The notes: generated by a model not told the origin, from the sequence alone. Positions 2,169-50,425 are shown, counted from the stretch's first letter. The stretch is 64,000 nt of DNA from a virus (IMGVR_UViG_3300032236_001530:91229-155228), one strand, 5' to 3'. Made by a program: numbers and translations.

Positions 2169-2544
2169 TTTGTCAGATATACCTTTTGTTCATTCCGGTA
2201 GTTATCGAGACGAGTGTAGAGTAAAAGGTAATAAACTACTAACTGAGCTTAATAGAATAAATATTAATATGTCAACTAAACATAATTATATAATCATACC
2301 GGTTAGTATTTATAATCTTTTAGAGATAAATGATAGTTTTATATCTTTAGAAAAGTCCGCTAATACATATGATGGTCCAATTAAAGTTGGCTTGATTGGT
2401 GAGTTTATTTGCTATTTAGATATACATTTACCGCCAAATGAAATTATTGTTTCTTGGGATAGACAAACATCAAGAAATGTTAAATTAGATTCTATATTAA
2501 ATGATACATTTGAAAAAGAAAAAAGAATTAAGGTTATATCTTAA
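2158..2544 (+). CDS. Small protein resembling an isolated gp23-type capsid A-domain; RNVKLDSIL motif near C-terminus
   Basis: NKLLTELNR..HNYIIIPVSIYNLL..KVGLIGEFICYLDIHLPPNEIIV. Confidence 0.5.
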   Translation: MVIDLSDIPFVHSGSYRDECRVKGNKLLTELNRININMSTKHNYIIIPVSIYNLLEINDSFISLEKSANTYDGPIKVGLIGEFICYLDIHLPPNEIIVSWDRQTSRNVKLDSILNDTFEKEKRIKVIS

Positions 2545-4394
2545 TTCTTTTTGTTTATATAGCTTTCAAATTTTGCTATTATTTTCTTGTTTACATTATC
2601 TATAGTCATTAAACTCTTTCTATCTGGTTTCATGCCTTTTGTAGCACCAGCCTTTAAGAATTCATCTCTTGTCACAGGTACTGGTTGTCCAGTCTTTTTA
2701 TCAACTATATTATATTCAAAGTTTTCATTTGTGTCTTGTCCTAATAATTCAACACCTTTTGTGTCGTATTCAACTTCACCACCTTGGTTAGCTATATCTA
2801 TTTTTGATTTTAATACATTAACAAAATCTTTAGCAACTGTTTTAAGAACATCAACATACTTTTCAGTATTATAAGCTATTTTAAGAGCTGGTTTATTATA
2901 CTTTAAGAAGTTGAAACCAGAGATATTTGTAATTGAAGGGTGACCACCTGAGTTTCTAATAATAAGTTCCCATGCAGGTATTTTGATATTACTTAAATAT
3001 GTTTTTTGGTCAGGAGCTAAATCACTAAACGAAACATCCATATACTCTCTCAACTCTGGATTGTTAATATCAACATTAACAATTTTACCATCTTTCTTCT
3101 CATACATACAATCTTTGTAAAAAGCTTCTAAATCAGTCCATCTAAACCCAACACCTTCATAATCCTCACCTTCTGCTTTTTGCATTGCTTTCCAATCTTG
3201 AGATGTTTCAAATTCTTTTTTAAGAGATTCTAATGAAACATAAAATCTTTTTAATACTGATTCATGTTTTGCTAAAACTTCTTTAGCTATTTCACCTAAG
3301 TTAATTTCTTTTAACTTCTTTTCTTTGAATGGATTACAAGAAACTTGTAATAACCCCATTGGCCAAGCAATACAGTTAAAGTCAGCCTCTGGGTTGTTTT
3401 TGAATACCACATATCTATCATATGAACCAGCTTTAATCATATTACCACCACCATATTGAGTAACGATTTTATAATCAGAGTCAAAGTTAACACCTTTGCC
3501 AATTTTAGCGCCAGTTGATAATAGATTTTTATGTCTCCAATTTGTTGGATCATATTCGGTCACATCACCTGTATTTGGATCTTCAATGAAACTATAATTC
3601 TTCATTCTATCAATGTAAGAGTTTAAGTTATCTGTAATTTCTTCAGGTGTTGCTAATCTTCCTAATTTATCAGAAGTTTTAGCATTACTAATATAATGTT
3701 TAATGTTGTTAAACATTGAGTATAAACTACCTGTAGAATCCAAAGTTAAACATTCAAGAATATTTTTATTAATATGATTTCTCTTACCATCTAAAGATTT
3801 AACAGTGATTCTTTTATTTTTATAAGCCAATAATAATCTATTAACTACAAAACCCATCATAAATCTATTCTTAGCTGGTGTTTCAGCTCTATCTTGTGTA
3901 AAGATTGCTTTTTGTACATCTTCTGGTTTGATATTATATGTTAAAAAGTTAGCTGAGTCAACTGTTTTAATTAGTTCAATATCTTGAGGTGTAAAAATAT
4001 CAGAGTATGATATTTCACCAGAAAGTATCTCAACATTTGAACGAGCATGTTTGAAGTATGTTGATTTAGTATCTTCAGCACCAACTTGTTTATCATGATG
4101 ATCTGATTGAATGTGGAACATTGGCTTACCGTGAGCAAAGTCAACTAGCACACAAAGGTTACCCTCTTGGTGATGCTTAATAGCGTATTCTAAACCACCA
4201 TATTGTATAATATGACAATCAACAGTTTCTATTTGATAGTAATTCTTTAAGAATTCTTTCATAGCAATAGCTGATGTAACACCATCTAAGTCTTTGTGGA
4301 AATAAATCTCTGCAGTTTTATGAAGCTTTGCTATCTTAGAAATGTTTTTAAGACCTACTTCCTCGTTTAGGAAATTTTGATATTTTTTTATCAT
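2541..4394 (-). CDS. DHH/DHHA1-family phosphoesterase with N-terminal CTS-like peptide
   Basis: HKDLDG, VDF, SDHH and C-terminal GGH motifs; starts MIKKYQNFLNEE. Confidence 0.8.
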   Translation of the reverse strand: MIKKYQNFLNEEVGLKNISKIAKLHKTAEIYFHKDLDGVTSAIAMKEFLKNYYQIETVDCHIIQYGGLEYAIKHHQEGNLCVLVDFAHGKPMFHIQSDHHDKQVGAEDTKSTYFKHARSNVEILSGEISYSDIFTPQDIELIKTVDSANFLTYNIKPEDVQKAIFTQDRAETPAKNRFMMGFVVNRLLLAYKNKRITVKSLDGKRNHINKNILECLTLDSTGSLYSMFNNIKHYISNAKTSDKLGRLATPEEITDNLNSYIDRMKNYSFIEDPNTGDVTEYDPTNWRHKNLLSTGAKIGKGVNFDSDYKIVTQYGGGNMIKAGSYDRYVVFKNNPEADFNCIAWPMGLLQVSCNPFKEKKLKEINLGEIAKEVLAKHESVLKRFYVSLESLKKEFETSQDWKAMQKAEGEDYEGVGFRWTDLEAFYKDCMYEKKDGKIVNVDINNPELREYMDVSFSDLAPDQKTYLSNIKIPAWELIIRNSGGHPSITNISGFNFLKYNKPALKIAYNTEKYVDVLKTVAKDFVNVLKSKIDIANQGGEVEYDTKGVELLGQDTNENFEYNIVDKKTGQPVPVTRDEFLKAGATKGMKPDRKSLMTIDNVNKKIIAKFESYINKKN

Positions 4395-4395
4395 A

Positions 4396-4809
4396 TTATT
4401 TTATATAATTTTGATCTGTTTTTCTATATATTAATATATTCAAGTGTTTATTTTCAATGTATTCTTTATGTATATAATAACCTAAATCATCTAATCTTAG
4501 TGATGCAACTTCCATTATTTCTTTATACTCTTCAGAGTTTTTCAAATTGGTAAGTTCATTATTTATTTTCCAAAGACTCTCTTGAAAAGGTCCCCAGTTT
4601 TTACCAATACTAATTTGAATGTAAGTAATTAAAGCAAATTTTAATGCTGATTCATCGGTGTTTTTAAAATCAAATAGTTTTTTTAAAAATCTAACATCAA
4701 CTATCCAACCGTTATCTGATATATCAGTGAATAAAAATTCAATATCTTCAGGTGTTAACTTAGATTCAGGTGATAGATGTATATTTTCAAACTTTTTTAA
4801 GTATTTCAT
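4396..4809 (-). CDS. Hypothetical protein with CTS-like N-terminus
   Basis: Starts MKYLKKFEN. Confidence 0.7.
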   Translation of the reverse strand: MKYLKKFENIHLSPESKLTPEDIEFLFTDISDNGWIVDVRFLKKLFDFKNTDESALKFALITYIQISIGKNWGPFQESLWKINNELTNLKNSEEYKEIMEVASLRLDDLGYYIHKEYIENKHLNILIYRKTDQNYIK

Positions 4810-6203
4810 TATTTCTTACCAAGCAATCCTTTTCCATAACCTTTTATAGTTCCTTTGGTTTCACCTTTAGTCTCGGTGTCAAATTTCGTATCAAAGAAGT
4901 TATTATTATCTGTAACTATTTTAACATCAGCATCCATAGTAGCATAAGGTCCTAATTTACCTGAACGATAAACACCACCAAACATATCACCATTCAAGTA
5001 ACCTTCCATAAAGTAACAACCTGTTAAATCAGAAGATTCTACTTTACAATTAAGAACTTTTGAGTTTTGTGCTGACGATTGTTGTAATTTACATTTTGTC
5101 ATTTGTGAGTTTTTAATCTCTGACCCTACAAAAAAGCAATCTTCAAATATACCCTCAACTTGACAATTTATTAAATCATATCCTTTTAGTGTTGATGTTG
5201 ATTTTATTTTAGCATCAACTATTTCCATTGTTTGTGTTGATGTTACATAGTTTACTATACATTCTTTTAATTCAGATGTTGAATCTATTAAGTTATAGAG
5301 TTTTGAGTATATACTATTATAATATGATGTTACCATATCATAGTTCATATTTTGGTCAATTTGTAATTGAATGGTTGGAAAGTCTATAATAAAGTTATCA
5401 TACTTTGAGAAATTTTTAAATGTAGAAATATTCTTTTCTAAATGTTCTTCAAGTTTATTAACATCCTCCGCATTAAAATCAACATCAATTGCGTCATAAA
5501 CATTAATGATAAATCTGTCCATGAAGTAAATTAAATTACCTATATTCTTTTCATAATCCTTACCACCAACATATCTTAATTCAAGTCTTTGAGAGTCCTT
5601 ATCGTTATTAATATGTAAGAAGTTGATACCGTAGTATTTATCATTTGGTGTTCTTAAATTATTCTTTACAACACTAATTGGGATATTAAAGAAGTCATAT
5701 TCTTTATAAGGAATCATTTTCTTTACTGACTTAGCGTAAACATTATCTTTTCTTGATGGGTAAACTCTATAAATTTCTTCTTCATCAGTATTTAGAATCA
5801 GTTTAAGAATATTCAAATCATTTAGATTCTTATCATCATCATTAAATGATAAGTTAAAGTGAATAGATGATTTTTCATTAGTTTGACCATGTGTTTGAAT
5901 AAATTTAACTATTTTAACTAAATAGTATTTAGCATCATAGTAGCTTAATGGACCAGTTACTAACTCAACCATGTTTGAACCACCTGATAAATCCGGTTCA
6001 ATTTTGAAATTCTTTTCATCTGGTGTGAAACCAGAGTGGTATTCTCTAAATCCCCAAACTTTCACAGGTGCTAACTCTTGGTTTAATAACTCCATTGCTT
6101 TATAGAAAGATAATTCTTTCATATAAAATTCAAATTCAAAGCCAACACGAGCATGCTTTAATTTATTTGATTGGTTTAGAAATTTATCCGAATACTTCTT
6201 CAT
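4809..6203 (-). CDS. Putative amidoligase (COOH-NH2 ligase type) with C-terminal beta-helix-like repeats
   Basis: GFEFEF, EPDLSG..MVELVTGPL, SIHFNLS, KYYGIN, ELRY motifs; I/L-x-x-C/S pentapeptide-like tail. Confidence 0.75.
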   Translation of the reverse strand: MKKYSDKFLNQSNKLKHARVGFEFEFYMKELSFYKAMELLNQELAPVKVWGFREYHSGFTPDEKNFKIEPDLSGGSNMVELVTGPLSYYDAKYYLVKIVKFIQTHGQTNEKSSIHFNLSFNDDDKNLNDLNILKLILNTDEEEIYRVYPSRKDNVYAKSVKKMIPYKEYDFFNIPISVVKNNLRTPNDKYYGINFLHINNDKDSQRLELRYVGGKDYEKNIGNLIYFMDRFIINVYDAIDVDFNAEDVNKLEEHLEKNISTFKNFSKYDNFIIDFPTIQLQIDQNMNYDMVTSYYNSIYSKLYNLIDSTSELKECIVNYVTSTQTMEIVDAKIKSTSTLKGYDLINCQVEGIFEDCFFVGSEIKNSQMTKCKLQQSSAQNSKVLNCKVESSDLTGCYFMEGYLNGDMFGGVYRSGKLGPYATMDADVKIVTDNNNFFDTKFDTETKGETKGTIKGYGKGLLGKK

Positions 6204-6209
6204 ATTACT

Positions 6210-6220
6210 TATATATTAAA
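6210..6220 (-). promoter_or_regulatory. Putative late promoter TTTAATATATA (representative copy)
   Basis: 6 nt upstream of ATG 6203; about 20 similar copies upstream of genes in the window. Confidence 0.75.
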
Positions 6221-6310
6221 ATCAAGTTCTCAAAATTAAATTACTTAAAATCAGGAGGGACAATATGTTTTTTATATATATTTCAATATTATAAAAATAA
6301 TTAATAGTAA

Positions 6311-6700: not shown

Positions 6701-6703
6701 TAG

Positions 6704-20177: not shown

Positions 20178-20870
20178 ATGAAACACTTAAAGAATTTTCA
20201 ATTATTTGAATCTAAAAAAGAAGAGCCTTCTAAAAAGTCTCAAGAAATGATCGATGCTTTTAAGAAAAAGTATGGTACTGAATTAGATGAAAAATTTGAT
20301 GTTGACCAAATAAAATTGATTGAAAGTGCTTTTGAATTTTTTGATAAAAAGTTTATCAAAAATAAAATTGAAAAAATAATACTTGATGACTTGGGTGGTG
20401 TTCATGGTAGATGGTCGGAAACAAAGACTAAAAAACAAATGACACTTAATCCTTCTATATTCAAATTCAAAAAAGAGTTTGAGAATGGTTCTAAAGATAT
20501 CCCTTATAAAGAGTTTGTTATTGTTCATGAGATAGGTCATTGTGTTGACCATGTTGAAAGAGTTTCTTATTCTAAAACATGGCAAGCTATCTCTGGTTGG
20601 AAAAGACTAGATAGAGATAAACCCGTTCCAGAAGGATATGTTAGATATGTGGAAGAAAGAAAAGGTAGAGAAATAGCTGGTCCTAAAAAATCAAACTGGA
20701 TTCATAAAAAAGATGCTTTTTTCTGTAGAAAATATACTTCTAGAAATCCAAGAGAAGATTTTGCGGATTGTTTTGCGTTTGGTGTGTTTGGTGATTGGGA
20801 TAGATTCAAAGGTGAAGGTGGTGAAAAGAAAATGGCTATTATTAAAGCCACATTAAAGAAAGTAGATTAA
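20178..20870 (+). CDS. Zincin-like metallopeptidase with CTS-like N-terminus
   Basis: VHEIGH and downstream REDFAD; starts MKHLKNFQLFES. Confidence 0.7.
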   Translation: MKHLKNFQLFESKKEEPSKKSQEMIDAFKKKYGTELDEKFDVDQIKLIESAFEFFDKKFIKNKIEKIILDDLGGVHGRWSETKTKKQMTLNPSIFKFKKEFENGSKDIPYKEFVIVHEIGHCVDHVERVSYSKTWQAISGWKRLDRDKPVPEGYVRYVEERKGREIAGPKKSNWIHKKDAFFCRKYTSRNPREDFADCFAFGVFGDWDRFKGEGGEKKMAIIKATLKKVD

Positions 20871-21517
20871 TCTAAATCAGCGGCTTGAACCGTATCTTTA
20901 TTGTAAATATAGATTATAATATTAGATATCTTTTCACCTTCTAATAAATCCAATAAATCATCAATATCTGTTGAAGTCTTTGTTAATGATATAGTTTCTG
21001 TTTCTCTCATTTCTTTAGATTTTGTTACTTTCATAGTAAACTCAGCATCTAACATTTTTAATTTACCCTGAACATCTAATAAATCCTCAACTATTTCTTC
21101 ATTTGTGTTATATTTAATACTAACTATATCGACAACAAAAGCACCAAAGTCAAAGTTACCAGAATCTTCAACGTCATCTGTTCTATCTAACAAAGGTTGG
21201 ATACAATCCATTATATCTCTATAATCAACATTTATATTAAAAGCTTGTAGGAATGATTCTTGAGAACCGTCGTGTATTTCATATTGGAAATAATCTTTAT
21301 AATCTTCTTCTACTTGGTCAATAAATTGGTCAAGAAGTGATTTTGTTTTACTCGTAAAAACACCATTACCTGGTCCTTGAACATTTGATTGTAGATTAGA
21401 TTCAATATGATCTATTAAAGGTTTGAATATCTCTTCCCAATCAACCGGATTTGTAAGTGGGCTCATTTCACGAGTTTCACTTTTAGTTTCTAATATAAGT
21501 TTAGAGAATTTTTTCAT
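20867..21517 (-). CDS. Acidic hypothetical protein with CTS-like N-terminus
   Basis: Starts MKKFSKLILE; late promoter 21523-21533. Confidence 0.7.
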   Translation of the reverse strand: MKKFSKLILETKSETREMSPLTNPVDWEEIFKPLIDHIESNLQSNVQGPGNGVFTSKTKSLLDQFIDQVEEDYKDYFQYEIHDGSQESFLQAFNINVDYRDIMDCIQPLLDRTDDVEDSGNFDFGAFVVDIVSIKYNTNEEIVEDLLDVQGKLKMLDAEFTMKVTKSKEMRETETISLTKTSTDIDDLLDLLEGEKISNIIIYIYNKDTVQAADLD

Positions 21518-23092: not shown

Positions 23093-24142
23093 ATGGTTAA
23101 AAAATTCAATCAATATATTTCAGAAAGTAATTCTGATTACTTGCTATACTATGCCTTTGACTGGGATGATAATATACTTTATATGCCTACTGTAATCCAC
23201 ATGGAAAGAAAAGAAGGTAATGAGTGGGTACCAGAAGATGTTTCTACTTCTAAATTTGCAGAAGTTAGAAATGACAAAGAAAATTATAGACTAACAAATG
23301 ACGCTTTCTCTGACTTTAGAGACACGGGTCCAAAAGGTGGTTCTATCTTTTTAGAAGATGCTAAAAAGGCAATATCCGCTGGTAAGTTTGGTCCAGCTTG
23401 GCATGATTTTATTGAATGTTTATCAAATGGTTCTTTATTTGCTATCATAACAGCTCGTGGTCATGAGTCTGAAACTATGAGAAAAGGAGTAGAGTGGATA
23501 ATAGATAATATTCTAACAGAAGAACAAGTTTATAGTATGTATAATCATCTTATGATGTATGCTTATCATTTTTCTCAGGATAGAGGAGAATCTCAAGAAA
23601 GAGTTTTAGTTGGTAAACCATCTGAAAATAAATTGGTTAAAGAATATTTAGACAATTGTGATTTTATTGGGGTGTCAGCACCTTCAAGAGGTGGTTCGCC
23701 TGCAAATCCGGAAAAGTCTAAAGAAGAAGCTCTTCTTACATTTCAACATAAAATTGATGAATTTGCTGCAAAAAGAGGTCTTAAAGCAAAAATTGGTTTC
23801 TCTGATGATGACTTAAAGAATGTTAAGCACATTGAAGATTTATATGCTAACCTATCAAAAGAAAGATTTCCAAATATTACTGAGTTTATAGTAAAAGGAA
23901 CTAAGGATCCTAAAAATATTACTAAAACTATCAGAACTATGGAATCATCTGAACAAACTCCTGGTTTGGAATCATCAGTTCTTAAATTCACAGAATTTGG
24001 AAATATGACAGGTCAATTATACCCACAAGGCCCTGACCAAAGACAAGATGATTTTGCTAATCAATTCAAAAGACAAACTAAATATCTAACTAAAACATCA
24101 AAGGAAATTTTAGGTGATAAAAAACGTAAAAAAAAAGATTAA
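23093..24142 (+). CDS. HAD-superfamily phosphatase-like protein with CTS-like N-terminus
   Basis: FDWDDNI motif I, ITARGH motif II, GFSDDD motif IV; starts MVKKFNQYISES. Confidence 0.7.
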   Translation: MVKKFNQYISESNSDYLLYYAFDWDDNILYMPTVIHMERKEGNEWVPEDVSTSKFAEVRNDKENYRLTNDAFSDFRDTGPKGGSIFLEDAKKAISAGKFGPAWHDFIECLSNGSLFAIITARGHESETMRKGVEWIIDNILTEEQVYSMYNHLMMYAYHFSQDRGESQERVLVGKPSENKLVKEYLDNCDFIGVSAPSRGGSPANPEKSKEEALLTFQHKIDEFAAKRGLKAKIGFSDDDLKNVKHIEDLYANLSKERFPNITEFIVKGTKDPKNITKTIRTMESSEQTPGLESSVLKFTEFGNMTGQLYPQGPDQRQDDFANQFKRQTKYLTKTSKEILGDKKRKKKD

Positions 24143-26241: not shown

Positions 26242-28104
26242 ATGAAATTTTTATCAAGCTACTTAGATTTTATTTTTGAGGCGGTCACTAAACAAGAAAT
26301 GAGACTTTATTTCTCAGATGAGTTTAGAGATATGTTGAGAAGATTTCAAGATAAATCAAGTATTGCACAAGCTTTATTAAGCTCAGAAGATTCTAATCAA
26401 ATGACTGATGTCTATACTCTAATAGATATCACTGAAAAGAATGATACAATTTCATTAATACAAGTAAATAGAATAACCAGAGCCAATCCCGAATTAGGCG
26501 AAACATTACCATATAACATTCGTAATAAGAAAAGAGGAAGTGAATTTTGGACTAAAGCAAGAACTGAAATAGGTATTGGTAGATGGGTTAGAAGAATATT
26601 TACCGAAGTTCATAAATCAACTATACTGGATTCTAAAATTGAAGAGTTTGTTAATTTATACAAGGCGGCCTTTGATGGTGGTGATGTATCAAGGTTTGAA
26701 TTGGTTAGTGGAGAGGATATTAGAAAATGGTATTATGAGAATAATTATGAGGAAAAAAGAGGTCAATTAGGAAACTCTTGTATGAGGTACTTTAGTTGTC
26801 AAAGTTATTTTGATATTTATGTTAAAAATCCTGAAGTTTGTAAATTACTTATTTTAAAATCTGAAAGTGAACCAAATAAAATTACAGGTAGAGCTTTGGT
26901 ATGGAAGTTAATAGATGGATCTTATTATATGGATAGAATCTATACTATAAATGATTCTGATAGATTTCTATTTAAAGACTATGCAAAGAAAAACAATATT
27001 GAGAACTTACACGAAGATAAATTTGATATCACTGTTCAATTAGGGGATCATACATACACTAAATATCCATATATGGATACCTTTGTTGTTTATAATCCAA
27101 AAACTAAAATTTTAAAAGATGATGAGGATTTATGGCCTAATAATGGTTATATTAAACTACAAAGCACGAATGGTGGATTTTCCTCTGATGATGTTGTTTA
27201 TTCAGAATGGCATGGTGAATATATCAATAGACAAAATGCGGTTTATTGTAGTAATGTCGAGGATTGGTTAGACAGAGATGAAGCAAAATATTTAGAATAT
27301 AAAGATATATGGGTAGCACCAAATGATGATGTTGTTTACTCAGAATACCACTCAGAGTATTTCCTTATGGATGATACTGTTTATTCTGATTTAATGAATG
27401 ATACACTATATCCAGATAGTAAAGATGTTATAGATATACAAATTAATTCAGATGGTGATACAGATTGGGGTGTTAAATCAAGAACCGATCTTTATATAAT
27501 AGGATGGGTAGATGAAAGACCTAGATATTACCTAAGAGAAAACTATATTAAAAATCCTTTTACTGGTGAATATCATTTCAAAGATGAAGATATAGATGGT
27601 GTTAAATTTAGTAATTATTTAGATAAAAAAATAGCTGAGAAATTAGATATTGTATTAGATGATAAAAACACTGATAGAAATGGTAAACCACATGATTCAT
27701 TGGTTCAAAAAGTAAGAGTAGAATTAAAAAATCTAATGAAAGATTTTGAAATCACAGACAATATAAAAGAAGCTATTGATAACAATAATATTTGGAATAA
27801 TAGTGTTAGAAATGTTTTTTGGGGATTACATAAAGATAATATGCCAACTGAAGAAGATATGTTTTTGGTAATTAAAGCTTATCCAACAATCTATCCTATG
27901 TCTAATCCATATGTACAATTTATGAGTTTAACTTGGAATAAACTTATGACAACAATAATTGAAGACTTTTCAGGAAGTGAAAAGAAGTTCAATATATTTA
28001 AATCAGAAGGTATATTAAGAAATATGACTAAAGCCGCTTATATCTTTGACTATTCTTTATTTCCTGAAGAAATTTATCTTAGATACTTATTTATCACTAT
28101 CTAA
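26242..28104 (+). CDS. Conserved phage protein (SCM/GRALVW/MDRIY/YPYMDT family) with CTS-like N-terminus; paralog of 44151
   Basis: Shared motifs with 44151..45281; ATG 26242 lies 6 nt after TTAATATATA. Confidence 0.75.
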   Translation: MKFLSSYLDFIFEAVTKQEMRLYFSDEFRDMLRRFQDKSSIAQALLSSEDSNQMTDVYTLIDITEKNDTISLIQVNRITRANPELGETLPYNIRNKKRGSEFWTKARTEIGIGRWVRRIFTEVHKSTILDSKIEEFVNLYKAAFDGGDVSRFELVSGEDIRKWYYENNYEEKRGQLGNSCMRYFSCQSYFDIYVKNPEVCKLLILKSESEPNKITGRALVWKLIDGSYYMDRIYTINDSDRFLFKDYAKKNNIENLHEDKFDITVQLGDHTYTKYPYMDTFVVYNPKTKILKDDEDLWPNNGYIKLQSTNGGFSSDDVVYSEWHGEYINRQNAVYCSNVEDWLDRDEAKYLEYKDIWVAPNDDVVYSEYHSEYFLMDDTVYSDLMNDTLYPDSKDVIDIQINSDGDTDWGVKSRTDLYIIGWVDERPRYYLRENYIKNPFTGEYHFKDEDIDGVKFSNYLDKKIAEKLDIVLDDKNTDRNGKPHDSLVQKVRVELKNLMKDFEITDNIKEAIDNNNIWNNSVRNVFWGLHKDNMPTEEDMFLVIKAYPTIYPMSNPYVQFMSLTWNKLMTTIIEDFSGSEKKFNIFKSEGILRNMTKAAYIFDYSLFPEEIYLRYLFITI

Positions 28105-32641: not shown

Positions 32642-33121
32642 TTATTTACCGAATTTCTTTAGTCTTGTATGTCTGTAACTTTTAGACTCAAACTTTTCTT
32701 CTTCCTCTTCACTATTCATCATCTCTTCTTCATTATCCATCTCGTTTTCTTCAACTTCATGATGACTGTGTGTATGTTCAGGTGTTGTTGATTTCTCTAA
32801 ATAGTTAACAACTTCTTCAGCTGTTTTAAATTTCTTATTATCAACGTGAAAGCTTTCAGTTTCTGAGAAGAAGTTAATAGTCTTACCATCGTGTTCAATC
32901 TTATTATCTATAACTTCAGTACCAAGCATTTCTGCTAACTCAGCCATTTTCTTTTGACCTTCGTATTCACCACCTTCTTCTTCAGGAAGTTCTGATTCTT
33001 CCATTTCAGTGTTATCCATTTCTGTTTCATGCATATCCATTTCTGGTGCTTCAACTTCATGTTCCATTTCGAAGTCCTCATTTACTTTACCTTTTACAAA
33101 GTCTGTATATCTTTTAATCAT
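32642..33121 (-). CDS. Acidic protein with CTS-like N-terminus (putative internal head protein)
   Basis: Starts MIKRYTDFVKGKVNED; Glu/Met-rich; late promoter 33156-33166. Confidence 0.7.
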   Translation of the reverse strand: MIKRYTDFVKGKVNEDFEMEHEVEAPEMDMHETEMDNTEMEESELPEEEGGEYEGQKKMAELAEMLGTEVIDNKIEHDGKTINFFSETESFHVDNKKFKTAEEVVNYLEKSTTPEHTHSHHEVEENEMDNEEEMMNSEEEEEKFESKSYRHTRLKKFGK

Positions 33122-33166: not shown

Positions 33167-33670
33167 TTATAAATCTTTATTTTTTTCACTTTCTAATTCA
33201 CCTACAACATAATCTAAAAATGAATCTAATTCATATTCCAGGCCATTACAAAACTCAAACACATCATATGATTCTTCATTTGGTTTTTTAGACACTGAAT
33301 AAAAATCTGGTGATATTTGATTACTATTAAAAACAACTATTCTACCCTCTAATCTACCTTCAATTCTTTTACCACTTGGGAATACTAAGTCTGGTACATA
33401 CAAAGTGCCTATATAATGCACCTCATCACCATAATCTTCTGTTTCGGTGTGTTCAAATTTGAAATATCCATTATCATCTTCAAATACTCTCTCACTTTCA
33501 TCAACAATCATCTTATTATGAACTTCTTCTTGATTTCCTGACTTATGCGCATTTAGAAAATCTCTTTCATCATCTCGCAATGAAGACATTCCATATTTAG
33601 ATATTTTATCCAATATGTCATCTACTCTTTGTTGAGCTGTATATCCTTCATATCTCATTAGATGTTTCAT
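33167..33670 (-). CDS. Protein with CTS-like start and DUF6576-like helical hairpin
   Basis: MKHLMRYEGY; VDDILDKISKYGMSSLRDDERDFL. Confidence 0.65.
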   Translation of the reverse strand: MKHLMRYEGYTAQQRVDDILDKISKYGMSSLRDDERDFLNAHKSGNQEEVHNKMIVDESERVFEDDNGYFKFEHTETEDYGDEVHYIGTLYVPDLVFPSGKRIEGRLEGRIVVFNSNQISPDFYSVSKKPNEESYDVFEFCNGLEYELDSFLDYVVGELESEKNKDL

Positions 33671-34361: not shown

Positions 34362-35141
34362 ATGATTAAAAAATACTCAAGTTATATTAATGAATCTGAT
34401 GACCAAAGAGTTTATTTAGATGACAACCAAAAAGGCCCAGGCTTTTATACCAATAAATATGGTCCTAATTCTATTGCTAATTTGAATCAGAAGATTTATA
34501 ACTATATTCATCAAGTATATGGTCCTTTAGGATTTTCTTATCCTCGTAAAGGTACTGTAGCTAATTATGATGTAACTGTAAATGGTGAGTTAATAAGTGG
34601 TGAGTATATATCTAAAATGGTTAATAACTACACTATATTCAAAACATTTATTAGAGAGAATAAAATCAAAGATGAAAATACATTTTATACCCTTTTAGAA
34701 TCTAAATTTGATGATGTTTATCACTATAATGGTAGTTTCTTCAAAAGACAGACTTTACCTATTTTAATAAACACAACTAGAAAAGGAAATAGTAACGAAA
34801 TTAGATGTAAACAGAAATTTATTGAATTTGCTAATACAAAAAATCTAAATATAGTTATAACAGATCCTACGGTTGCTGAAGATGTTGATGGTGTAGATGC
34901 TAAGTTTGTACACAATGGTAGAACATTCACTATTCAAATCAAACCATTTAGTGAGTACAAAACTATAGGTGATAAATTATACGCTAAGTCAGCTGGTTCT
35001 TTATCAGTTGGTTCTGTTAATTATTTAATGCTTTATTCAGCTACTGAATATTTAATAATTAAAAATGTATCTACAGACCCAATAAAAATAAAAGGTGATG
35101 TTTTCATCGCCTCTTTATCAAGTGTTATTTATAAAGATTAA
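34362..35141 (+). CDS. PD-(D/E)XK nuclease-like protein with CTS-like N-terminus
   Basis: GNSNE...EDVDGVDAKF...TIQIKP; starts MIKKYSSYINES. Confidence 0.6.
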   Translation: MIKKYSSYINESDDQRVYLDDNQKGPGFYTNKYGPNSIANLNQKIYNYIHQVYGPLGFSYPRKGTVANYDVTVNGELISGEYISKMVNNYTIFKTFIRENKIKDENTFYTLLESKFDDVYHYNGSFFKRQTLPILINTTRKGNSNEIRCKQKFIEFANTKNLNIVITDPTVAEDVDGVDAKFVHNGRTFTIQIKPFSEYKTIGDKLYAKSAGSLSVGSVNYLMLYSATEYLIIKNVSTDPIKIKGDVFIASLSSVIYKD

Positions 35142-38889: not shown

Positions 38890-38962
38890 AGTTAAGGTAT
38901 AATTTACTACATGATATATTCAAAAATATCAATTTTGTTTATTTAGTTTTAATATATAAGGT

Positions 38963-39526
38963 ATGATTAAAAAATGGAATGAGTTTATTAGAGAATTTGT
39001 AGAAAGTGAAAGTTATATTGATGCTAAAATGCAAGAGTTGAAAGACCTTGTTGACGGCGCAACTGATGGTAATAACATAATCTACGAATGGGAAAATAAA
39101 AATGACCACGAATTAACGGTTACTTTTTCAATGGGTGAATTATCTATCAGATATGACTTTGACATTGATGATTTACATGTAACTAAAACAGCTGGTGGTA
39201 AAATAGACTTTCAGAATAATGTTGAGTCTATTGATGAAGGCTTGGAAATCATAGAAAAGGATATTCAATCTATTTTAGGTATATCAGAATCAAGAAAGGG
39301 TAGACCAAAAGCTCAAAGATATAAGGGTCGCAAAATACCTGGAAAATATCTAACTAAGAATCCTGGTAAAATGAAAAAAGAAATTGACACATTCAGAGGT
39401 AAGAAAGAATATAAAAAAGACTGGGATGCCGACTACACATCTGGTAAAGGTGGAGAAGGCAAAAGAGTTAAAACTAAAAAATCTGCTGCTACAAAAGCAT
39501 ACCAAAGAATGTTTGGTGATAAATAA
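38963..39526 (+). CDS. Protein with CTS-like start, acidic domain and basic DUF5824-like C-terminus
   Basis: MIKKWNEFIREFVES; KTKKSAATKAYQRMFG. Confidence 0.65.
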   Translation: MIKKWNEFIREFVESESYIDAKMQELKDLVDGATDGNNIIYEWENKNDHELTVTFSMGELSIRYDFDIDDLHVTKTAGGKIDFQNNVESIDEGLEIIEKDIQSILGISESRKGRPKAQRYKGRKIPGKYLTKNPGKMKKEIDTFRGKKEYKKDWDADYTSGKGGEGKRVKTKKSAATKAYQRMFGDK

Positions 39527-39540: not shown

Positions 39541-39870
39541 ATGAAATACTTATTAACATTTGAATCTTTATTTGAAGATTACTCAAAGTTTATAACCGAA
39601 GAAGATATTAATGAATCTAAAGATTCTGGTGTAACTGCTTCATTAAAAAAGAAATCAAAAGCATCTGGAATTCCAGTTGGTATTTTAAGAAAAGTATTTT
39701 CTAAAGGAATGCAAGCTTGGAACGCTGGTCACAGACCGGGTGTAGCTCAACACCAGTGGGCTTTTGGAAGAGTAAACTCATTTATTACTGGTGCTGGTGG
39801 TGCTAGAAAAGCTGACGCTGATTTATGGACTAAAGCGAAAGCCGCAAAAGCTAGAAAGAAAAAGAAATAA
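39541..39870 (+). CDS. DUF5824-like basic protein with CTS-like start
   Basis: LKKKSKASGIPVGILRKVF.KGMQAW..GHRPG...QWAFGRVNSF. Confidence 0.7.
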   Translation: MKYLLTFESLFEDYSKFITEEDINESKDSGVTASLKKKSKASGIPVGILRKVFSKGMQAWNAGHRPGVAQHQWAFGRVNSFITGAGGARKADADLWTKAKAAKARKKKK

Positions 39871-44150: not shown

Positions 44151-45281
44151 ATGATAAAAGGGTATAATGGTTTTTTATTACAACAATTAAAGGCAGAGTT
44201 ATTTTCATTAAATGAAGACATCTTGTATGCATCTAGCGAGCTTATGGTAAAATTAAAAAAGATGGCTGAGATGGATGATAAAGTTGGTGAAATAGCAAAT
44301 GCTATTGTTGATACTATTGAGTCCGAAGATTGGTTTCCAGATGTCGATACTAAACAGAACTTTTTTGATGTAACTGATAAAGAAGATTTTATATCTTTTT
44401 TACCATCTAATAAAGTACCAAAAGATTGGGACCAAGATGATGATCCTGCTTTACCATATAACTCAAAAGGTAGAAGTGAAGTTAAAGTTGGTAAACTTGT
44501 AAGAGCTTTACTTAAAATTGCTGATATTTCAGATAGAGTAGATTCTTCTATAAATGATAAAGATTATGAGGATTTTGTAAATGCTTTCAAATCTCTTAAA
44601 GTTGATACATCTAGAGAATTTAGATTAGTTAACGGTGAAGATATTCACAAATATTATCAAATGAAGAACTATTATTCAAGTCATGGTTCTTTAGGTGGTT
44701 CTTGTATGGCTGATGAAGGTAAAAATACATTCAGAGTTTATACAGAAAATCCAAGAAAAGTTCAATTACTTATTTTAATTGATAGTGATGATAAAATACA
44801 CGGTCGTGCTCTTGTTTGGAAGTTAAAAGAATCTCCTTGTGAAGCTAAATACTTTATGGATAGAGTTTATACTAATGCTGACTCTGATGTAATTAAATTC
44901 AAAGCTTTTGCTGAAGAAAAAGGATTCCTTTATAAACAAAAGAATAATAGTTATGTTGAAGATAACATTAAGTTTATGTATAAAGGCAAACCTTTAATGG
45001 GTGAAGTCAAAGTGAAATTAGACGGTGACTTCAAGAATTATCCATTCATTGATACTATGTGCTTCTTGAGTAAGAAAATGGGTGATTTATCAAATATACC
45101 ATCAAAAGATTGTTACTTCTTACATTCTGTTTCTGGTGATTGTGAAGTGTGTGATAGATGTAATGGTAAGATAATAGAAGAAGATGGAGATTTCTGTAGT
45201 GAATGTGGTTCAGGTATCGAACAGTTAGAAAAATCTGGTATCAAAACTAAAATTGGTGAGAAATTAAAAGATAAAGAATAA
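44151..45281 (+). CDS. Paralog of 26242..28104 with C-terminal Cys cluster and CTS-like start
   Basis: GSCM, GRALVWKL, MDRVY, YPFIDT; CEVCDRC..CSEC; late promoter 44133-44143. Confidence 0.75.
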   Translation: MIKGYNGFLLQQLKAELFSLNEDILYASSELMVKLKKMAEMDDKVGEIANAIVDTIESEDWFPDVDTKQNFFDVTDKEDFISFLPSNKVPKDWDQDDDPALPYNSKGRSEVKVGKLVRALLKIADISDRVDSSINDKDYEDFVNAFKSLKVDTSREFRLVNGEDIHKYYQMKNYYSSHGSLGGSCMADEGKNTFRVYTENPRKVQLLILIDSDDKIHGRALVWKLKESPCEAKYFMDRVYTNADSDVIKFKAFAEEKGFLYKQKNNSYVEDNIKFMYKGKPLMGEVKVKLDGDFKNYPFIDTMCFLSKKMGDLSNIPSKDCYFLHSVSGDCEVCDRCNGKIIEEDGDFCSECGSGIEQLEKSGIKTKIGEKLKDKE

Positions 45282-46203: not shown

Positions 46204-46244
46204 ATTACTTTTATGAAATAAATTTGTATTTGTTTATACTGTAT

Positions 46245-46276
46245 AAAAAAACCTCTTAGATTTCTAAGAGGTTTTT
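46245..46276 (-). terminator. Intrinsic terminator
   Basis: AAAAAACCTCTTAG-ATTT-CTAAGAGGTTTTT. Confidence 0.85.
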
Positions 46277-46293
46277 ATTATAATTTTATATTA

Positions 46294-46902
46294 TTAGTTT
46301 TGAAAGTTATTGAAGCTTTTTATACCACTCATTTCTTCTTCATCTTGCATTTCTTCAGATTCTTCTTCATCTTGCATTTCTTCTTCCATTTCATTATCAT
46401 CCATCATTTCATGTTCGTCCATTTCGTGCTCCATATCGTGTTCAGGATTTTCATGACCAGCTAAGAAATCAAATACTTGCTCTAAGTTTTCAGTAGCAAC
46501 AGAGATATGATCAGAAGCCCAATCATGTTCCATTAAGATAGCATCGATATCTTCACGATCCATAGCTAACAACTCATCAACAAGTCTTTTCATTGTTTCT
46601 AAGTTACCAAAAAACATATAGTTACCTTCTTCTTGGTGTTCTTTTAATGATTTTAATGTTTTAGCTAAATTTAATCTCTTATATTTAGTAGCATCTTTTT
46701 TACCTAATTGAGCACCTGGCTTATTAGGATCTTTATCTTTAGCTTTTAATTTAGCTAATTCGGCATTAATCTCTGATTTAGAGATTTTCTCACCTTCTTT
46801 TTTACCCATAGACTTTTTCAAAGCACCTGGATTTTTGATAGCATCTTGGATCCATTTTTCACCTTTTGCTTCATTAAATGAATTAAATGATTTAATACTC
46901 AT
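46294..46902 (-). CDS. Putative internal head protein with CTS-like motifs at both ends
   Basis: MSIKSFNSFNEA...GIKSFNNFQN*; basic KWIQDAIKNPGAL domain followed by an acidic domain. Confidence 0.7.
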   Translation of the reverse strand: MSIKSFNSFNEAKGEKWIQDAIKNPGALKKSMGKKEGEKISKSEINAELAKLKAKDKDPNKPGAQLGKKDATKYKRLNLAKTLKSLKEHQEEGNYMFFGNLETMKRLVDELLAMDREDIDAILMEHDWASDHISVATENLEQVFDFLAGHENPEHDMEHEMDEHEMMDDNEMEEEMQDEEESEEMQDEEEMSGIKSFNNFQN

Positions 46903-46952
46903 ATTCAGTTTTTAATTTTTTTTTTATATATTAAATTTATATATTGATTTTT

Positions 46953-48113
46953 TTACTTTAATACTGTAACTACTTCTGGGTAGTATTCTGCAATTTCTGG
47001 ATTTTTACCATCATAGTTTATATCAGAAAGTACATACCTCATAGCATTTAATCTACCTATCTTTTTATCATTTGAGTTAATAATAACCCAAGGTGACATT
47101 CTACTTGATGTTTTTGTAAACATTTGGTTTTTGAAGTTACCTATTACTTCCCACTTGTCTAATACTTTAGCATCATTTGGTGAGAATTTCCAATACTTTA
47201 AAGGACTTTGTTGTCTTAGCTCAAATCTTTTGATTTGTTTTTCCTGTGTGATAGAAAACCAGAACTTAATTAGTATTAAACCATTACTTATTAAATCTTC
47301 TTCCCAATCAACAACTTTATCCATAAAGTCTTTATATTGTTCTTCTGTGCAGTAACCCATAGCGGGTTCAACAACAGCTCTATTATACCAACTTCTATCA
47401 AAGAAAACTATTTCACCTGGTTTAGGTAAATGCTTTTCATATCTTCCAAACCAATTTTTCTTTTCTTCTTCGGTTGGTAGACCTAAAGCCACAACTTTAA
47501 ATCCTTTTGGATTCAAATATTCTGTAAATCTTTTAATTGTTGAGCCTTTACCAGCAGAATCTCTACCTTCAAATACAATAGCTACTCTTTTTTGGTTCTT
47601 AATAACCCATTCTTGTAATTTTAATAACTCAACTTGTATTTGGTATTTTTCAGATTCATATTGTTTTCTTGGAAGAATCGAGCCTTCACCACCTGGTATC
47701 TCAAATTGTTCACCAGATTCAGGTTCACCAGCATTTTTTACTTGTTGAATTCTTTCTTCAATTGATTGATAATACTCATCAAATGCTTCTCTTACTTTTC
47801 TTTTAGTATTTCTTTTTCTTAGTTCTAAAATCTGATTTACTTTTCTAAGAAATGCTTCTACGTTTAACTCTTGAATAAATTCTAATGTATATTCATTTGT
47901 TAATTCTCTCATTATAACTTTAATATCAATTTTATCAAAGTTTTTATATTCTATTTTATTAGTAAGTGTGTTATAATGTATATTGGCTAATATGTATGTA
48001 CGATATTCATTAAGTCTAAACATAAAATGTTCTTTTGTAGACTTTAAAGTTGCATCATCTAGTTTAGAGATACTTATTTCTTCATTAATAAATTTATTAA
48101 AATCGAATATCAT
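46953..48113 (-). CDS. ppk2: Polyphosphate kinase 2 with about 140-aa N-terminal extension and CTS-like start
   Basis: FEGRDSAGKG, FDRSWYNR, IKFWFSI, WKFSPND; starts MIFDFNKFINEE. Confidence 0.92.
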   Translation of the reverse strand: MIFDFNKFINEEISISKLDDATLKSTKEHFMFRLNEYRTYILANIHYNTLTNKIEYKNFDKIDIKVIMRELTNEYTLEFIQELNVEAFLRKVNQILELRKRNTKRKVREAFDEYYQSIEERIQQVKNAGEPESGEQFEIPGGEGSILPRKQYESEKYQIQVELLKLQEWVIKNQKRVAIVFEGRDSAGKGSTIKRFTEYLNPKGFKVVALGLPTEEEKKNWFGRYEKHLPKPGEIVFFDRSWYNRAVVEPAMGYCTEEQYKDFMDKVVDWEEDLISNGLILIKFWFSITQEKQIKRFELRQQSPLKYWKFSPNDAKVLDKWEVIGNFKNQMFTKTSSRMSPWVIINSNDKKIGRLNAMRYVLSDINYDGKNPEIAEYYPEVVTVLK

Positions 48114-48151
48114 AATATAATAAGGTTTGAATTATATATTAAAGTTGAAAA

Positions 48152-49054
48152 TTATATTTTCTTATCGAATAAGTAAAGGTCATAAACAGCATTGCCTTTA
48201 ACTTTCTTAATACTTTTAAGAACTTGACCTGTTGTTGAATCTAAAACCTTATAAACACCGATATTTATACCTTTATCATCTAAAACCTTAACTGTGTTAC
48301 CTGGTTGACCTAAAGCACCTAACACTGCAATATATTTATTACCATAAATACTTTTTAGAAATGATATCTTGGCTGTAGCTATGTCTTTTATATTATTCAC
48401 ATAAGCATTCTCTAATGGTTTGTTTAAGTCTAAAACTGATTCTGTATTTTTTGTTCTAATAGTTACCGATTTTCTTTCCTCATCACCTAAAGTAACTTCT
48501 TCTCTGTTTTGAATTTTATTCTGTGTTAATAATGATTGTTGATTTCTTCTAATTTCATTGAAATCAGCCTTAGCTATGATACCACCTCTCATACCTTTAT
48601 CATTCATGTTATAACCAACCGGTGCTAATCTATAGAATGAACCAGTGAAAGTCATAGAAAGAATTCTATCTGTTCTAAATAAACGCCAGATTTTTTCAGT
48701 GTGTCTCTTTTGTGATACAGACCAACCATTTAAGTGCCAACCTCTTAAAAGTGTTTTACCTTTGGTTGAACGACCTAAAACCATGAAATAGACGGCTCTC
48801 TCATGACCAGCAAAGTGATTATCTTCAGCACCTTTATAGTTAATAAGGAAAATCATACCATATTTAATGGCCTTTATAGCAATCGAATCAGAATATTTTA
48901 TTGGCTCGTTGATTGGAATGTTAGCAATATCCTTTACATTTTTCAATGTAAATCTTGGGATATATTCTTTATCCTCTACTAATTCATAGTTTTCTCTTAC
49001 TATGAACTCAACATCTTTCTTATTATAGTAATCTTTTAATTGAGACAAATTCAT
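48152..49054 (-). CDS. WYL-like domain protein
   Basis: INY....ERAVYFMVLG....LLRGW....WRLFRTDRI. Confidence 0.6.
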   Translation of the reverse strand: MNLSQLKDYYNKKDVEFIVRENYELVEDKEYIPRFTLKNVKDIANIPINEPIKYSDSIAIKAIKYGMIFLINYKGAEDNHFAGHERAVYFMVLGRSTKGKTLLRGWHLNGWSVSQKRHTEKIWRLFRTDRILSMTFTGSFYRLAPVGYNMNDKGMRGGIIAKADFNEIRRNQQSLLTQNKIQNREEVTLGDEERKSVTIRTKNTESVLDLNKPLENAYVNNIKDIATAKISFLKSIYGNKYIAVLGALGQPGNTVKVLDDKGINIGVYKVLDSTTGQVLKSIKKVKGNAVYDLYLFDKKI

Positions 49055-49109
49055 ATCGTATATATTAATTTGTCTTTGTCTAATTATGAGAAATTAAACT
49101 CATATAATG

Positions 49110-49847
49110 TTATTTTTTCAAAAATTTTGATAGTCTTTTTATTCCGATTTCTAAACTTCTTGGATTTATATCACATCCAATATACCTTCTGTTCAAACCT
49201 AGAGCGGCTTCTCCTGTAGTATGTGATCCGGCATAAAAATCGGCTACTAAGTCTCCTTCATCTGAAGATGATTTGATAATTCTTTCTATTAAAGACTTTG
49301 GTTTCTGAGTATCATAACCAACTCTTTCCTTTTTATCATTTTGACCTAATATATTCATTTGCCAAACATCACCAATTACTTTGCCTTCTGGGTGGTAGTA
49401 TTTTTCTTTCTCATAGCCTCTTGGTGCGGTTAAAGAGTAAGGTTCTCTAACTGGATTGAATTTATACTTATCAGTTTTTGAATATCGATAAATTATATCG
49501 TGTCTTTTACCAAAGTCGGACTTTTTTCTTGGTGCTGTATTATAAAACCAAATGATTTCATTTCTCATATTATCATATCCAAAGATATCATCCATAATAC
49601 AACGAATCCAATGATTAATTTTAGTATCCATTTGTAAATAGATTGTACCGGTGCTTTTTAAAATACGGTGCATTTCTTTTATACGGGGTATATAATGTTC
49701 ATCTATATCTGATTTAATTGGCTTTAAGTCTTGATAGTCAGAAAATTTACGACCAGTACCATATAGAATATCACAGTATATAAGATCAATAGAATTATCC
49801 TCTATTGATTTCATAAATTCTAAATTATCTTGGCATTCTATTCTCAT
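49110..49847 (-). CDS. DNA amino-methyltransferase (N6/N4 beta class) with atypical DILY motif IV
   Basis: IDLIYCDILY, RNEIIW.Y, YDTQKPKSLIERII, VADFYAGSHTTG. Confidence 0.85.
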   Translation of the reverse strand: MRIECQDNLEFMKSIEDNSIDLIYCDILYGTGRKFSDYQDLKPIKSDIDEHYIPRIKEMHRILKSTGTIYLQMDTKINHWIRCIMDDIFGYDNMRNEIIWFYNTAPRKKSDFGKRHDIIYRYSKTDKYKFNPVREPYSLTAPRGYEKEKYYHPEGKVIGDVWQMNILGQNDKKERVGYDTQKPKSLIERIIKSSSDEGDLVADFYAGSHTTGEAALGLNRRYIGCDINPRSLEIGIKRLSKFLKK

Positions 49848-49865
49848 ATTAAAATTATTTAAAAC

Positions 49866-49897
49866 AAAAAGAGAGACTCTAAGTCTCTCAGTTTTTT
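49866..49897 (-). terminator. Intrinsic terminator
   Basis: AAAAAGAGAGAC-TCTAA-GTCTCTC downstream of the lipoprotein gene. Confidence 0.7.
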
Positions 49898-49911
49898 AGT
49901 TAGTCAGCTAA

Positions 49912-50091
49912 TTACTTAGCAGCTTTAACAGCTGTATCAACTGCTTTTGTAGCTGTTGTATCAACAGATTTTGCTGTTGTGTCAACTGCTACCTTAGTAG
50001 AGTCAGATGTTGAAGTTGAAGTTTTTTCAGCTCCGCTACCGCAAGAAGCTAAAATTGCTGATGCTAAAAGCACGAACGCGATTTTTCTCAT
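49912..50091 (-). CDS. Small lipoprotein, 59 aa, with VDTT/DST repeats; not in ORF track
   Basis: MRKIAFVLLASAILAS-CGSGAEKTSTSTSDSTKVAVDTTAKSVDTTATKAVDTAVKAAK*; lipobox LASC. Confidence 0.85.
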   Translation of the reverse strand: MRKIAFVLLASAILASCGSGAEKTSTSTSDSTKVAVDTTAKSVDTTATKAVDTAVKAAK

Positions 50092-50224
50092 AATTGTTGT
50101 TTTTTTTGTTTTGTTTTTAATTATTAAAGTTATTGAATATTATATATCATTTTTTTATTCTTTTGTTTTAAAAAGTAGTAAAATATTTTTTATATATACT
50201 ACAATACAAATATACAAAAGATTT

Positions 50225-50425
50225 ATGAAACACCTAAAAAAATATGAAAGTTTTGAATTGGCTCAAGAAGAAATTGATCCAAAACCAAGCTATTACTACA
50301 GTTGTGATGAATGTGATAACATCTGGAAAGATGACGAAGAATGTAAGTCTTGTAAACACTGTGATTCTGATGAAATAGAGGAATTACATGAAGAAGAGTG
50401 GAATGAATTAAATAAATCAAAATAA
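50225..50425 (+). CDS. Small zinc-ribbon protein with CTS-like start (true start of track ORF 49979..50425)
   Basis: MKHLKKYESFE..CDEC..CKHC. Confidence 0.75.
   Translation: MKHLKKYESFELAQEEIDPKPSYYYSCDECDNIWKDDEECKSCKHCDSDEIEELHEEEWNELNKSK

Follow-up and report, generated by a model that had tools for sequence, protein, structure and literature searches.

The capsid targeting sequence (CTS) of bacteriophage T4, MKTYQEFIAE, undergoes a single cut, and the cargo that carried it is retained in the head (PMC8442874), and the internal proteins of the T-even phages share the CTS only (PMC3012670). All known proteases of the gp21 type (S77) cut after glutamate; in phiKZ, 201phi2-1 and SPN3US (gp175/gp245 proteases) the cuts fall at [A/S/G]-x-E, and the conserved N-termini of diverged paralogues have been proposed to be CTS-like (PMC5694885). 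Here we describe a short N-terminal peptide, referred to below as the tag, that is shared by many proteins encoded in a 64,000-nucleotide stretch of viral DNA (the window), which comprises bases 91,229-155,228 of a linear 155,228-bp IMG/VR virus contig of about 30% G+C (IMGVR_UViG_3300032236_001530). We consider it moderately probable that this peptide is a T4-type prohead-targeting and processing tag, that is, a CTS, whose use a clade of huge Bacteroidota-type phages has greatly expanded. A literature search found the tag strings in no paper and no paper tying a CTS to huge Bacteroidota phages, and we found no published description of a tag system for this clade.

The phage, described as Bacteroidota-type, is uncultured and known here from its sequence, on which a simple non-overlapping call of open reading frames (ORFs) placed 229 genes over 93% of the contig. 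One window protein has an identical copy on a contig of 471,672 bp, indicating that the 155-kb contig is a fragment of a very large genome. Nucleotide and protein searches identified its kin as uncultured huge phages (LR745206 and LR756501-4, 635-735 kb), with Cellulophaga phages more distant, and in a megablast search for the nearest annotated phages the helicase alone matched, to two unannotated huge-phage records. Counts of the tag, and of a DNA box described below, were replicated in G001, a related 242-kb contig with 364 ORFs; orthologues of the window's 748-aa tail protein (45-49% identity) are present in G001 and in two further relatives, G003 and G004.

Of the 229 ORFs about 44 are tagged, and 15 of these lie within the window. 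The earlier note on this DNA had put the set at about 15, and the N-terminal peptides that it wrote out proved exact in start codon and sequence, but the contig as a whole holds three times as many. Four of these starts (26242, 33670, 44151 and 50225) are ATG codons within longer GTG/TTG or ATG frames, and are taken as the true ones because box spacing and orthologues agree. The tag is 9-12 residues long: its start is basic, a pair of aromatic or hydrophobic residues stands at a spacing of three or four, and a glutamate and a small residue follow. It comes in two flavours. Type A reads M-[KR]-[YH]-L-K-x-[YF] and then ES, NES or K[ILV]FES; type B reads M-[IV]-K-[KR]-[YFW]-x-x-[FY]-[IL]-x-E-[SE]. 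With the first 14 residues cut off, BLASTP linked only 9 of the 44 tagged proteins, in three small families, and left 35 as singletons; the 44 bearers thus form 38 groups without detectable mutual similarity, which indicates that the tag is borne by largely unrelated proteins.

The enrichment at N-termini is pronounced. A loose core, [KR]x[YFW]xx[FYIL]x0-3E, has its start among the first 8 residues in 21 proteins, whereas 200 composition-keeping shuffles of residues 2-31 within each protein gave a mean of 2.0 and a maximum of 7; the per-position rate of the core at the N-terminus is about 11 times the internal rate. One strict expression matches 16% of contig ORFs, 13% of those in G001 and 8% in 91 kb of LR745206, and matches none of 122 T4 ORFs (83 kb) or of 79 ORFs of Cellulophaga phage phi38:1. 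Tags number from 47 (strict) to 86 (loose) among the ORFs of G001, and across contigs they occur on 16-24% of genes. Within a set of 91 tags the first glutamate lies at residues 8-11 in 88%; the following residue (P1') is serine in 45%, against 8% in the background, and small or acidic in 80%, and P3 is hydrophobic in 73%, against about 35%. The tag is missing, as had been claimed, from the window's helicase, DNA polymerase, NAMPT, baseplate and fibre genes. A separate search of 2.9 million IMG/VR viral contigs with an exact DNA pattern for MKYLKKFNE[S] returned 21 stretches, all on contigs of 13.7-508 kb, several of which also have the protease-repeat gene described below.

The pattern [YFW]xx[YF][ILV]xE[small] connects the type-B tag with T4. 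IPII and IPIII begin MKTYQEFIAEA in the T4 record (IPI begins MKTFKEF), and over 75 kb of T4 the N-termini that the pattern matches are exactly these two; it also matches T4 gp23 at F59-A66, and gp23 is matured by cleavage after Glu65. N-terminal matches number 6 on the contig (0.31 expected) and 6 in G001 (0.60 expected), where one tag, MKKYTEFVNEE, is nearly the T4 CTS, and each of 78 protease-repeat proteins contains 6-10 sites. The likeness to the T4 CTS drawn in the earlier note is thus borne out in part: the type-B pattern is common to IPII, IPIII, the gp23 site and the repeats fused to the relatives' protease, but about a third of the tags (MKYLKxFES) have no hydrophobic residue at P3, and the cargo is acidic.

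Several features mark the tag as a peptide under selection in its own right. Its codons follow genome-wide synonymous use (TCN and AGY for serine, AAA/AGA for lysine/arginine, TTA/CTA for leucine), which argues for selection on the peptide and not on a DNA or RNA signal or a recombination linker. The tag is kept across more than 100 orthologues, and those in G001 retain it with changes at residues outside the pattern. In a family of HAD phosphatases with 96 orthologues (64-89% identical), the tag takes the form M[IV]K[KR]FxQF[IL]xE[SN]; each of M1, K3, F5, F/Y8, I/L9 and E11 is retained in 90% or more, and the next 3-6 residues vary in sequence and length, forming a variable linker before the conserved domain. 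An AlphaFold2 (AF2) model of the HAD phosphatase built from 40 sequences gave residues 1-14 a predicted local distance difference test score (pLDDT) of about 37, with a helix at 5-11, and a domain from residue 16 at pLDDT 80-95, so the tag is predicted to be a short helix detached from the fold of its cargo. The tag is a portable, peptide-selected and structurally detached element, which supports the comparison with the T4 CTS.

Head genes of the T4 type are present in the relatives. LR745206 encodes a terminase and proteins assigned to phrog_213 (portal), phrog_207 (head maturation protease, E 4e-30) and phrog_138 (major head protein), and these three PHROG families are those of T4 gp20, gp21 (E 8e-76 to phrog_207) and gp23. 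Alignment of the relatives' protease with T4 gp21 by hhalign gave E 5e-5 and a probability of 67%, with GEFDHP/GELNHP and VSSR/VSSR aligned; a PDB sequence search with the protease profile gave no relevant match. There are 118 relatives of this protease in IMG/VR, of which 80 loci were kept, and in all of them the protease (L009:23546-25669 in LR745206; L010-L089) is fused to about 13 tandem 13-residue repeats, with the unit N-I-x-Y-S-E-Y-[LIV]-A-E-N-L-D-K, and then to an acidic tract. The fusion looks like a protease-scaffold whose unit resembles the CTS. The relatives' capsid protein begins MSHIRIDKQKAMKKWSPVLENMG..WMSEYAEFHSINENAY, recalling ..LNKWKPLLEGEG.. in T4 gp23. A probable S77-type protease was found in the tag-bearing LR745206, G001, G003 and G004, and the last three carry the head module together with orthologues of the window's tail gene; bracketed by these relatives, the phage of the window very probably carries the same head module.

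Directly behind the capsid gene lies a conserved gene for a 129-aa tagged protein (L009:27508-27897; also L010-L089) that has the motif ...G[RK]DAKSND... and belongs to no PHROG family. Its orthologues carry either MIKK[YF]..F.ES or MK[YH]LK.FES, which indicates that the two flavours of tag are functionally equivalent. Cellulophaga phage phi38:1 has a homologue of one cargo family, with no tag and no S77 match. Its virion annotation was dropped as a proxy for packaging, as a phage without tags is uninformative in this respect.

The tagged genes can reasonably be assigned to the late class. The TAATATATA box is found within 60 nt upstream of 23 of 44 tagged and 22 of 185 untagged genes (p = 3e-8); when co-oriented, closely spaced downstream genes are counted, box-led units take in 36 of the 44 tagged genes (82%) and 63 of the 185 untagged ones (p = 1e-8), and both associations replicate in G001 (p = 6e-6 and 1e-8). 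The link between tagged genes and a TTTAATATATA box that had been proposed from the window is upheld by these unit counts, in which tags are enriched in box-led units on the contig and in G001. The TAATATATA box also stands upstream of fibre, baseplate and portal genes, and the relatives encode a 121-aa ORF that matches phrog_234, the family of T4 gp55, at E 2e-7 and T4 gp55 itself at E 2e-4 in BLASTP. Because structural genes share the box and the relatives have this gp55-like factor, it is reasonable to read the box as a late promoter; the TTTAATATATA box is probably a gp55-type late promoter giving a near-leaderless mRNA.

The candidate gp55-like late sigma factor lies near the head genes (L009:14151-14516 in LR745206; 188610-188975 in G001). 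A single-sequence search of four records with T4 gp55 found nothing, and the ORF was spotted by eye, after which PHROG and BLASTP confirmed it. Over the contig and G001, 67 of 152 copies of the TAATATATA box end 4-6 nt before an ATG, and many such mRNAs should therefore be leaderless or nearly so. A box at 17 nt or less from the ATG was seen for 43 of 63 box-bearing tagged genes and 22 of 60 untagged ones (p = 6e-4), and for fibre, baseplate and portal genes the box is mostly 26-38 nt from the ATG.

The tagged proteins of the window, with one example of the box, are as follows (window positions):

2541-4394, minus strand: 617-aa tagged protein, MIKKYQNFLNEE then VGL, with a weak DHH-like N-terminal domain; start verified, T4-spacing pattern match at residue 5
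4396-4809, minus strand: 137-aa tagged ORFan, MKYLKKFEN; start verified, gene two of a box-led unit, G001 orthologue MKYLKTFEG
20178-20870, plus strand: 230-aa tagged protein, MKHLKNFQLFES, with HEIGH (zincin-like motif only); box 14 nt before the ATG
20867-21517, minus strand: 216-aa tagged ORFan, MKKFSKLILET; box 14 nt ahead of the ATG, without a Pfam or PHROG match
23093-24142, plus strand: 349-aa tagged HAD-superfamily phosphatase, MVKKFNQYISES plus linker plus YLLYYAFDWDDN; 2565 homologues, fold match
26242-28104, plus strand: 620-aa tagged protein, MKFLSSYLDFIFEA, with two further paralogues on the contig; box 15 nt ahead of the ATG
32642-33121, minus strand: 159-aa tagged acidic ORFan, MIKRYTDFVKGKVNED; start verified, G001 orthologue begins MIKKYNQFVNERVNEE
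33167-33670, minus strand: 167-aa tagged protein, MKHLMRYEGY, DUF6576 (Pfam E 2e-7); G001 orthologue (69% identity) keeps MKHLMRYEGY
34362-35141, plus strand: 259-aa tagged ORFan, MIKKYSSYINES; box 14 nt before the ATG, T4-spacing pattern match
38947-38962, plus strand: example of the TTTAATATATA box in upstream sequence, 4 nt before the ATG of a tagged gene
38963-39526, plus strand: 187-aa tagged ORFan, MIKKWNEFIREF; box 13 nt before the ATG, G001 orthologue begins MVKKWNQFIREF
39541-39870, plus strand: 109-aa tagged basic protein, MKYLLTFESLFE, DUF5824 (Pfam E 2e-14); second gene of one unit with the gene at 38963
44151-45281, plus strand: 376-aa tagged protein, MIKGYNGFLL..LNED, with two CxxC pairs; paralogue of the 26242-28104 protein, box 16 nt before the ATG
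46294-46902, minus strand: 202-aa tagged protein, MSIKSFNSFNEA, with a lysine-rich middle and an acidic tail, ending in the tag-like MSGIKSFNNFQN and a stop; start verified
46953-48113, minus strand: 386-aa tagged polyphosphate kinase 2 (PPK2), MIFDFNKFINEE plus about 135 aa plus the PPK2 domain; T4-spacing pattern match
50225-50425, plus strand: 66-aa tagged zinc-ribbon-like protein, MKHLKKYESFE, with CDEC and CKSC pairs; G001 orthologue MNHIKKYESFD

The majority of the tagged proteins belong to no Pfam or PHROG family, and the names first given to the others hold in part. The PPK2 assignment is firm (PF03976, E 7e-79, 265 bits against a cut-off of 22.3, residues 149-370). The protein at 23093-24142 has no Pfam match, and a Foldseek search with its model returned none, but in its modelled domain FDWDDN, a DxD motif, lies on strand 1, and the best fold match by VIA-align was the 3'-phosphatase domain of T4 Pnkp (Z 9.9, 130 aa, root-mean-square deviation 3.0), followed by many HAD hydrolases. 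These two, and a zinc-ribbon-like protein identified by its CxxC pairs, are the well-supported members of the earlier note's cargo list. The DHH phosphoesterase listed with them is weak, its Pfam match (E 4.7e-5) being below the cut-off; the zincin protease comes down to the HEIGH motif, in a protein that matches neither Pfam nor PHROG families, and a nuclease could not be confirmed among the cargo. Outside the window the contig encodes a tagged NUDIX hydrolase, whose domain starts at residue 14, directly behind the tag, and a tagged pterin-4a-carbinolamine dehydratase fusion.

Comparison among homologues adds to this picture. The G001 orthologue of the 617-aa protein (65% identity) begins MKKYTEFVNEE and continues, like the window protein, with VGL. 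The family of the 620-aa protein has 7-15 copies in huge phages, and its homologue in phi38:1 is without the tag and without the first ~136 residues. The C-terminus of the 202-aa protein (46294-46332, minus strand), ...EEMSGIKSFNNFQN followed by the stop, is a second copy of that protein's own tag, MSIKSFNSFNEA, and may be the scar of a recombination between tags or a vestigial start of a downstream gene. A 464-aa protein at 4809-6203 (minus strand), with a weak, below-threshold pentapeptide-repeat match, starts MKKYSDKFLNQ, which is tag-like with glutamine in the place of the glutamate, as is the start of its G001 orthologue (MRKYSDKFLSQ); it may carry an uncleavable variant. Between positions 356 and 31389 of the genome, outside the window, many small type-A proteins share [DE]DI[FL]LEL.D.G[FY] about 10 residues past the tag, which suggests a common small domain mostly missed by BLASTP. 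An expression for a C-terminal helix label matched 3 C-termini, none of them in a tagged protein.

Two other parts of the contig drew attention. At 59374-64000 of the window the G+C content rises to 45%, with overlaps among long ORFs, in several frames and on both strands, within one frame of more than 1542 aa; our guess is a repetitive, perhaps collagen-like, fibre gene. At 61334-71497 and 84160-91326 of the genome, outside the window, the N-termini of runs of proteins have lipoprotein or secretion-type signal peptides, and one resembles a response-regulator receiver domain. Judged from the N-termini alone, the genes there could be host-like.

A mechanism can be proposed in which, late in infection, the tag helix would bind the scaffolding core during core assembly, a core that in this clade would consist of tag-like units of 13 residues (NIxYSEY[LI]AENLDK), repeated in tandem and joined to the gp21-type protease. 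Docking on the repeat core would build the cargo into the prohead, where the protease would cut after the glutamate of the tag, after that of each repeat and at the propeptide of the capsid protein (..SEYAEFHSINE|N); a cut after the tag's glutamate is proposed because all known S77 proteases cut after glutamate. The mature cargo, which would include PPK2, the Pnkp-like HAD phosphatase, the NUDIX and pterin dehydratase fusions and a majority of ORFans, would be retained in the head and ejected along with the DNA. A stronger form of the proposal, to which we give less credence and which we regard as possible but doubtful, is that the clade fills its capsids in advance with about a fifth of the proteins that it encodes, a ready-made 'starter proteome', the tag mimicking one unit of the protease-fused scaffold. 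Cargo would then co-assemble with the repeat array and be freed by the cuts that dismantle it, and the starter proteome would hold nucleotide- and polyphosphate-handling enzymes and dozens of fast-evolving ORFans.

A number of observations weigh against the prohead-targeting reading. Packaging, cleavage after glutamate and injection of the tagged proteins are predictions. On the 155-kb contig itself neither Peptidase_S77 nor Gp23 was found, nor any match to the protease-scaffold of the relatives; the relatives' protease reaches 20 bits with Pfam S77, below the cut-off of 27, and an AF2 model of its domain from 8 close sequences, at pLDDT 40, was too poor for a fold search. Near the head module of the relatives tags are rarer (67 of 1570 ORFs, 4%). 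A position-specific scoring matrix derived from the repeats picks out tags weakly, 6 of its 16 best windows being N-terminal, with scores of at most 6 bits. The T4 rule [LI]-x-E is broken by the 29 of 91 tags that have glutamate at residue 8 (MKYLKxFES) and a non-hydrophobic P3; threonine, lysine or arginine at P3 was counted in 22 of the 91. The cargo is acidic, with a median isoelectric point of 5.4, unlike the basic internal proteins of T4. To our knowledge, tags on 16-24% of genes go far beyond any known packaged set, and such numbers of bearers call capsid capacity and stoichiometry into question.

So large a share of the genes would fit a localisation label better than capsid cargo, and the tag could instead be an uncleaved address or docking helix directing its bearers to a membrane, to a chaperone of the phage, to an assembly factory or to a compartment that the phage makes. 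A short amphipathic helix of lysine and aromatic residues, placed at the very N-terminus and predicted to stand apart from the fold of the cargo, would suit that role, as would an acidic cargo that includes ordinary cytoplasmic enzymes. Membrane binding, however, does not need a near-invariant glutamate followed by serine or asparagine, and both this glutamate and the spacing of the aromatic residues are matched in the T4 CTS, at the gp23 cut site and in the protease-fused repeats of the clade; no candidate receptor was identified, and we regard the address explanation as unlikely. It is less probable still that tagged proteins enter the prohead and are not delivered, serving as core or scaffold mass, or as zymogens switched on or destroyed by the head protease, and are then degraded and expelled. 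T4 gp22, gp67 and gp68 are degraded and expelled, gp67 and gp68 are acidic like the many small ORFans among the tagged proteins, the tag resembles one unit of the repeat array, and [ILV]xE tripeptides are common inside proteins, so that many cargoes might be cut up. The folded enzymes (PPK2, HAD phosphatase, NUDIX) are nevertheless under strong purifying selection downstream of the tag, which would be odd for filler, and in the T4 precedent CTS-tagged proteins are retained (PMC8442874).

Explanations that place the function of the tag outside localisation altogether seem to us very improbable. Its first codons might be selected for initiation or early elongation on near-leaderless mRNAs in a host without Shine-Dalgarno pairing, which would agree with the preference of tagged genes for a box close to the ATG and with a tag made mostly of residues that have AT-only codons (K, Y, L, F, N, I). 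Yet synonymous sites are as free as elsewhere and both serine codon families are used, roughly half of the tagged genes are operon-internal and not leaderless, fibre genes at the same short spacing have no tag, and a shuffle that keeps the composition of residues 2-31 destroys the motif. We give as little credence to a leader for a modifying enzyme, such as a radical SAM enzyme acting on something like a ribosomally synthesised and post-translationally modified peptide, or to a recombination linker for cassette swapping. One radical-SAM gene each is present in G001 and LR745206, but it is a single 300-aa enzyme with no association with tagged genes seen, and the radical-SAM leader was dropped because the contig has no such gene despite its 44 tags. 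A vestigial further copy of the tag, at the 3' end of the gene at 46294-46902, hints that tags have recombined with one another, although DNA conservation no higher than the protein requires would make poor homology for such exchange.

If the prohead-targeting reading is true, capsid targeting is no curiosity of the T-even phages but an old feature of T4-type head assembly, scaled up tenfold in some huge phages. A simple sequence rule would then predict, for uncultured megaphages, the set of proteins delivered on infection of the host, and these would be the likeliest actors in takeover and counter-defence; dozens of ORFans per genome would become one defined functional class. The fusion of protease and repeat scaffold suggests that recognition of a CTS works through its mimicry of a scaffold unit, and a short portable loading tag with its cognate shell could serve protein encapsulation. 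Should the reading be wrong, it would still have to be explained why about 20% of a proteome bears an N-terminal label.

Among described systems, the tag has likenesses to several that it does not share in full. The N-terminus of E. coli MreB, MLKKFRGMF, is a membrane-binding amphipathic helix, and helices of this kind resemble the tag in combining lysine and aromatic residues at the extreme N-terminus; they differ in that they are not known to have a conserved glutamate with a small residue after it or any relation to substrates of a head protease. Like the cargo-loading peptides of encapsulins, the tag is short, conserved and terminal and is attached through a flexible linker, and both would bring diverse enzymes into a shell of the HK97 fold, whereas encapsulin peptides are C-terminal as a rule, bind the shell directly, remain uncleaved, serve one or few cargo types and have no sequence similarity to the tag. 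Also comparable are phiKZ, 201phi2-1 and SPN3US, which are likewise giant phages with a gp21-type protease cutting after glutamate and which deliver many internal head proteins. Their propeptides, however, mostly exceed 100 residues, only some 8 proteins undergo processing, no short tag stands on dozens of unrelated proteins, and the P3 residue is alanine, serine or glycine, where the tag has a hydrophobic or aromatic one.

From T4, whose CTS function is experimental, the system described here differs in being known from sequence alone. It has tens of bearers per 155-240 kb where T4 has a handful, and a second, commoner flavour of tag (MKYLKxF..ES) in which P3 is often non-hydrophobic; its cargo is mostly acidic and includes sizeable enzymes, and in the relatives the protease is fused to a CTS-like tandem array in place of a separate gp22. 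It is nonetheless the T4 CTS, found on IPI, IPII, IPIII and Alt and removed by gp21, that the tag closely resembles. Both are N-terminal peptides of about 10 residues on otherwise unrelated proteins, and both, in the type-B tags, have aromatic-x-x-aromatic-[IL]-x-E followed by a small residue. Tagged genes, like the T-even phages' polymorphic ip loci, are scattered in variable regions and not placed in the head operon, and the relatives possess a portal protein, a protease, a capsid protein and a late sigma factor homologous to those of T4.

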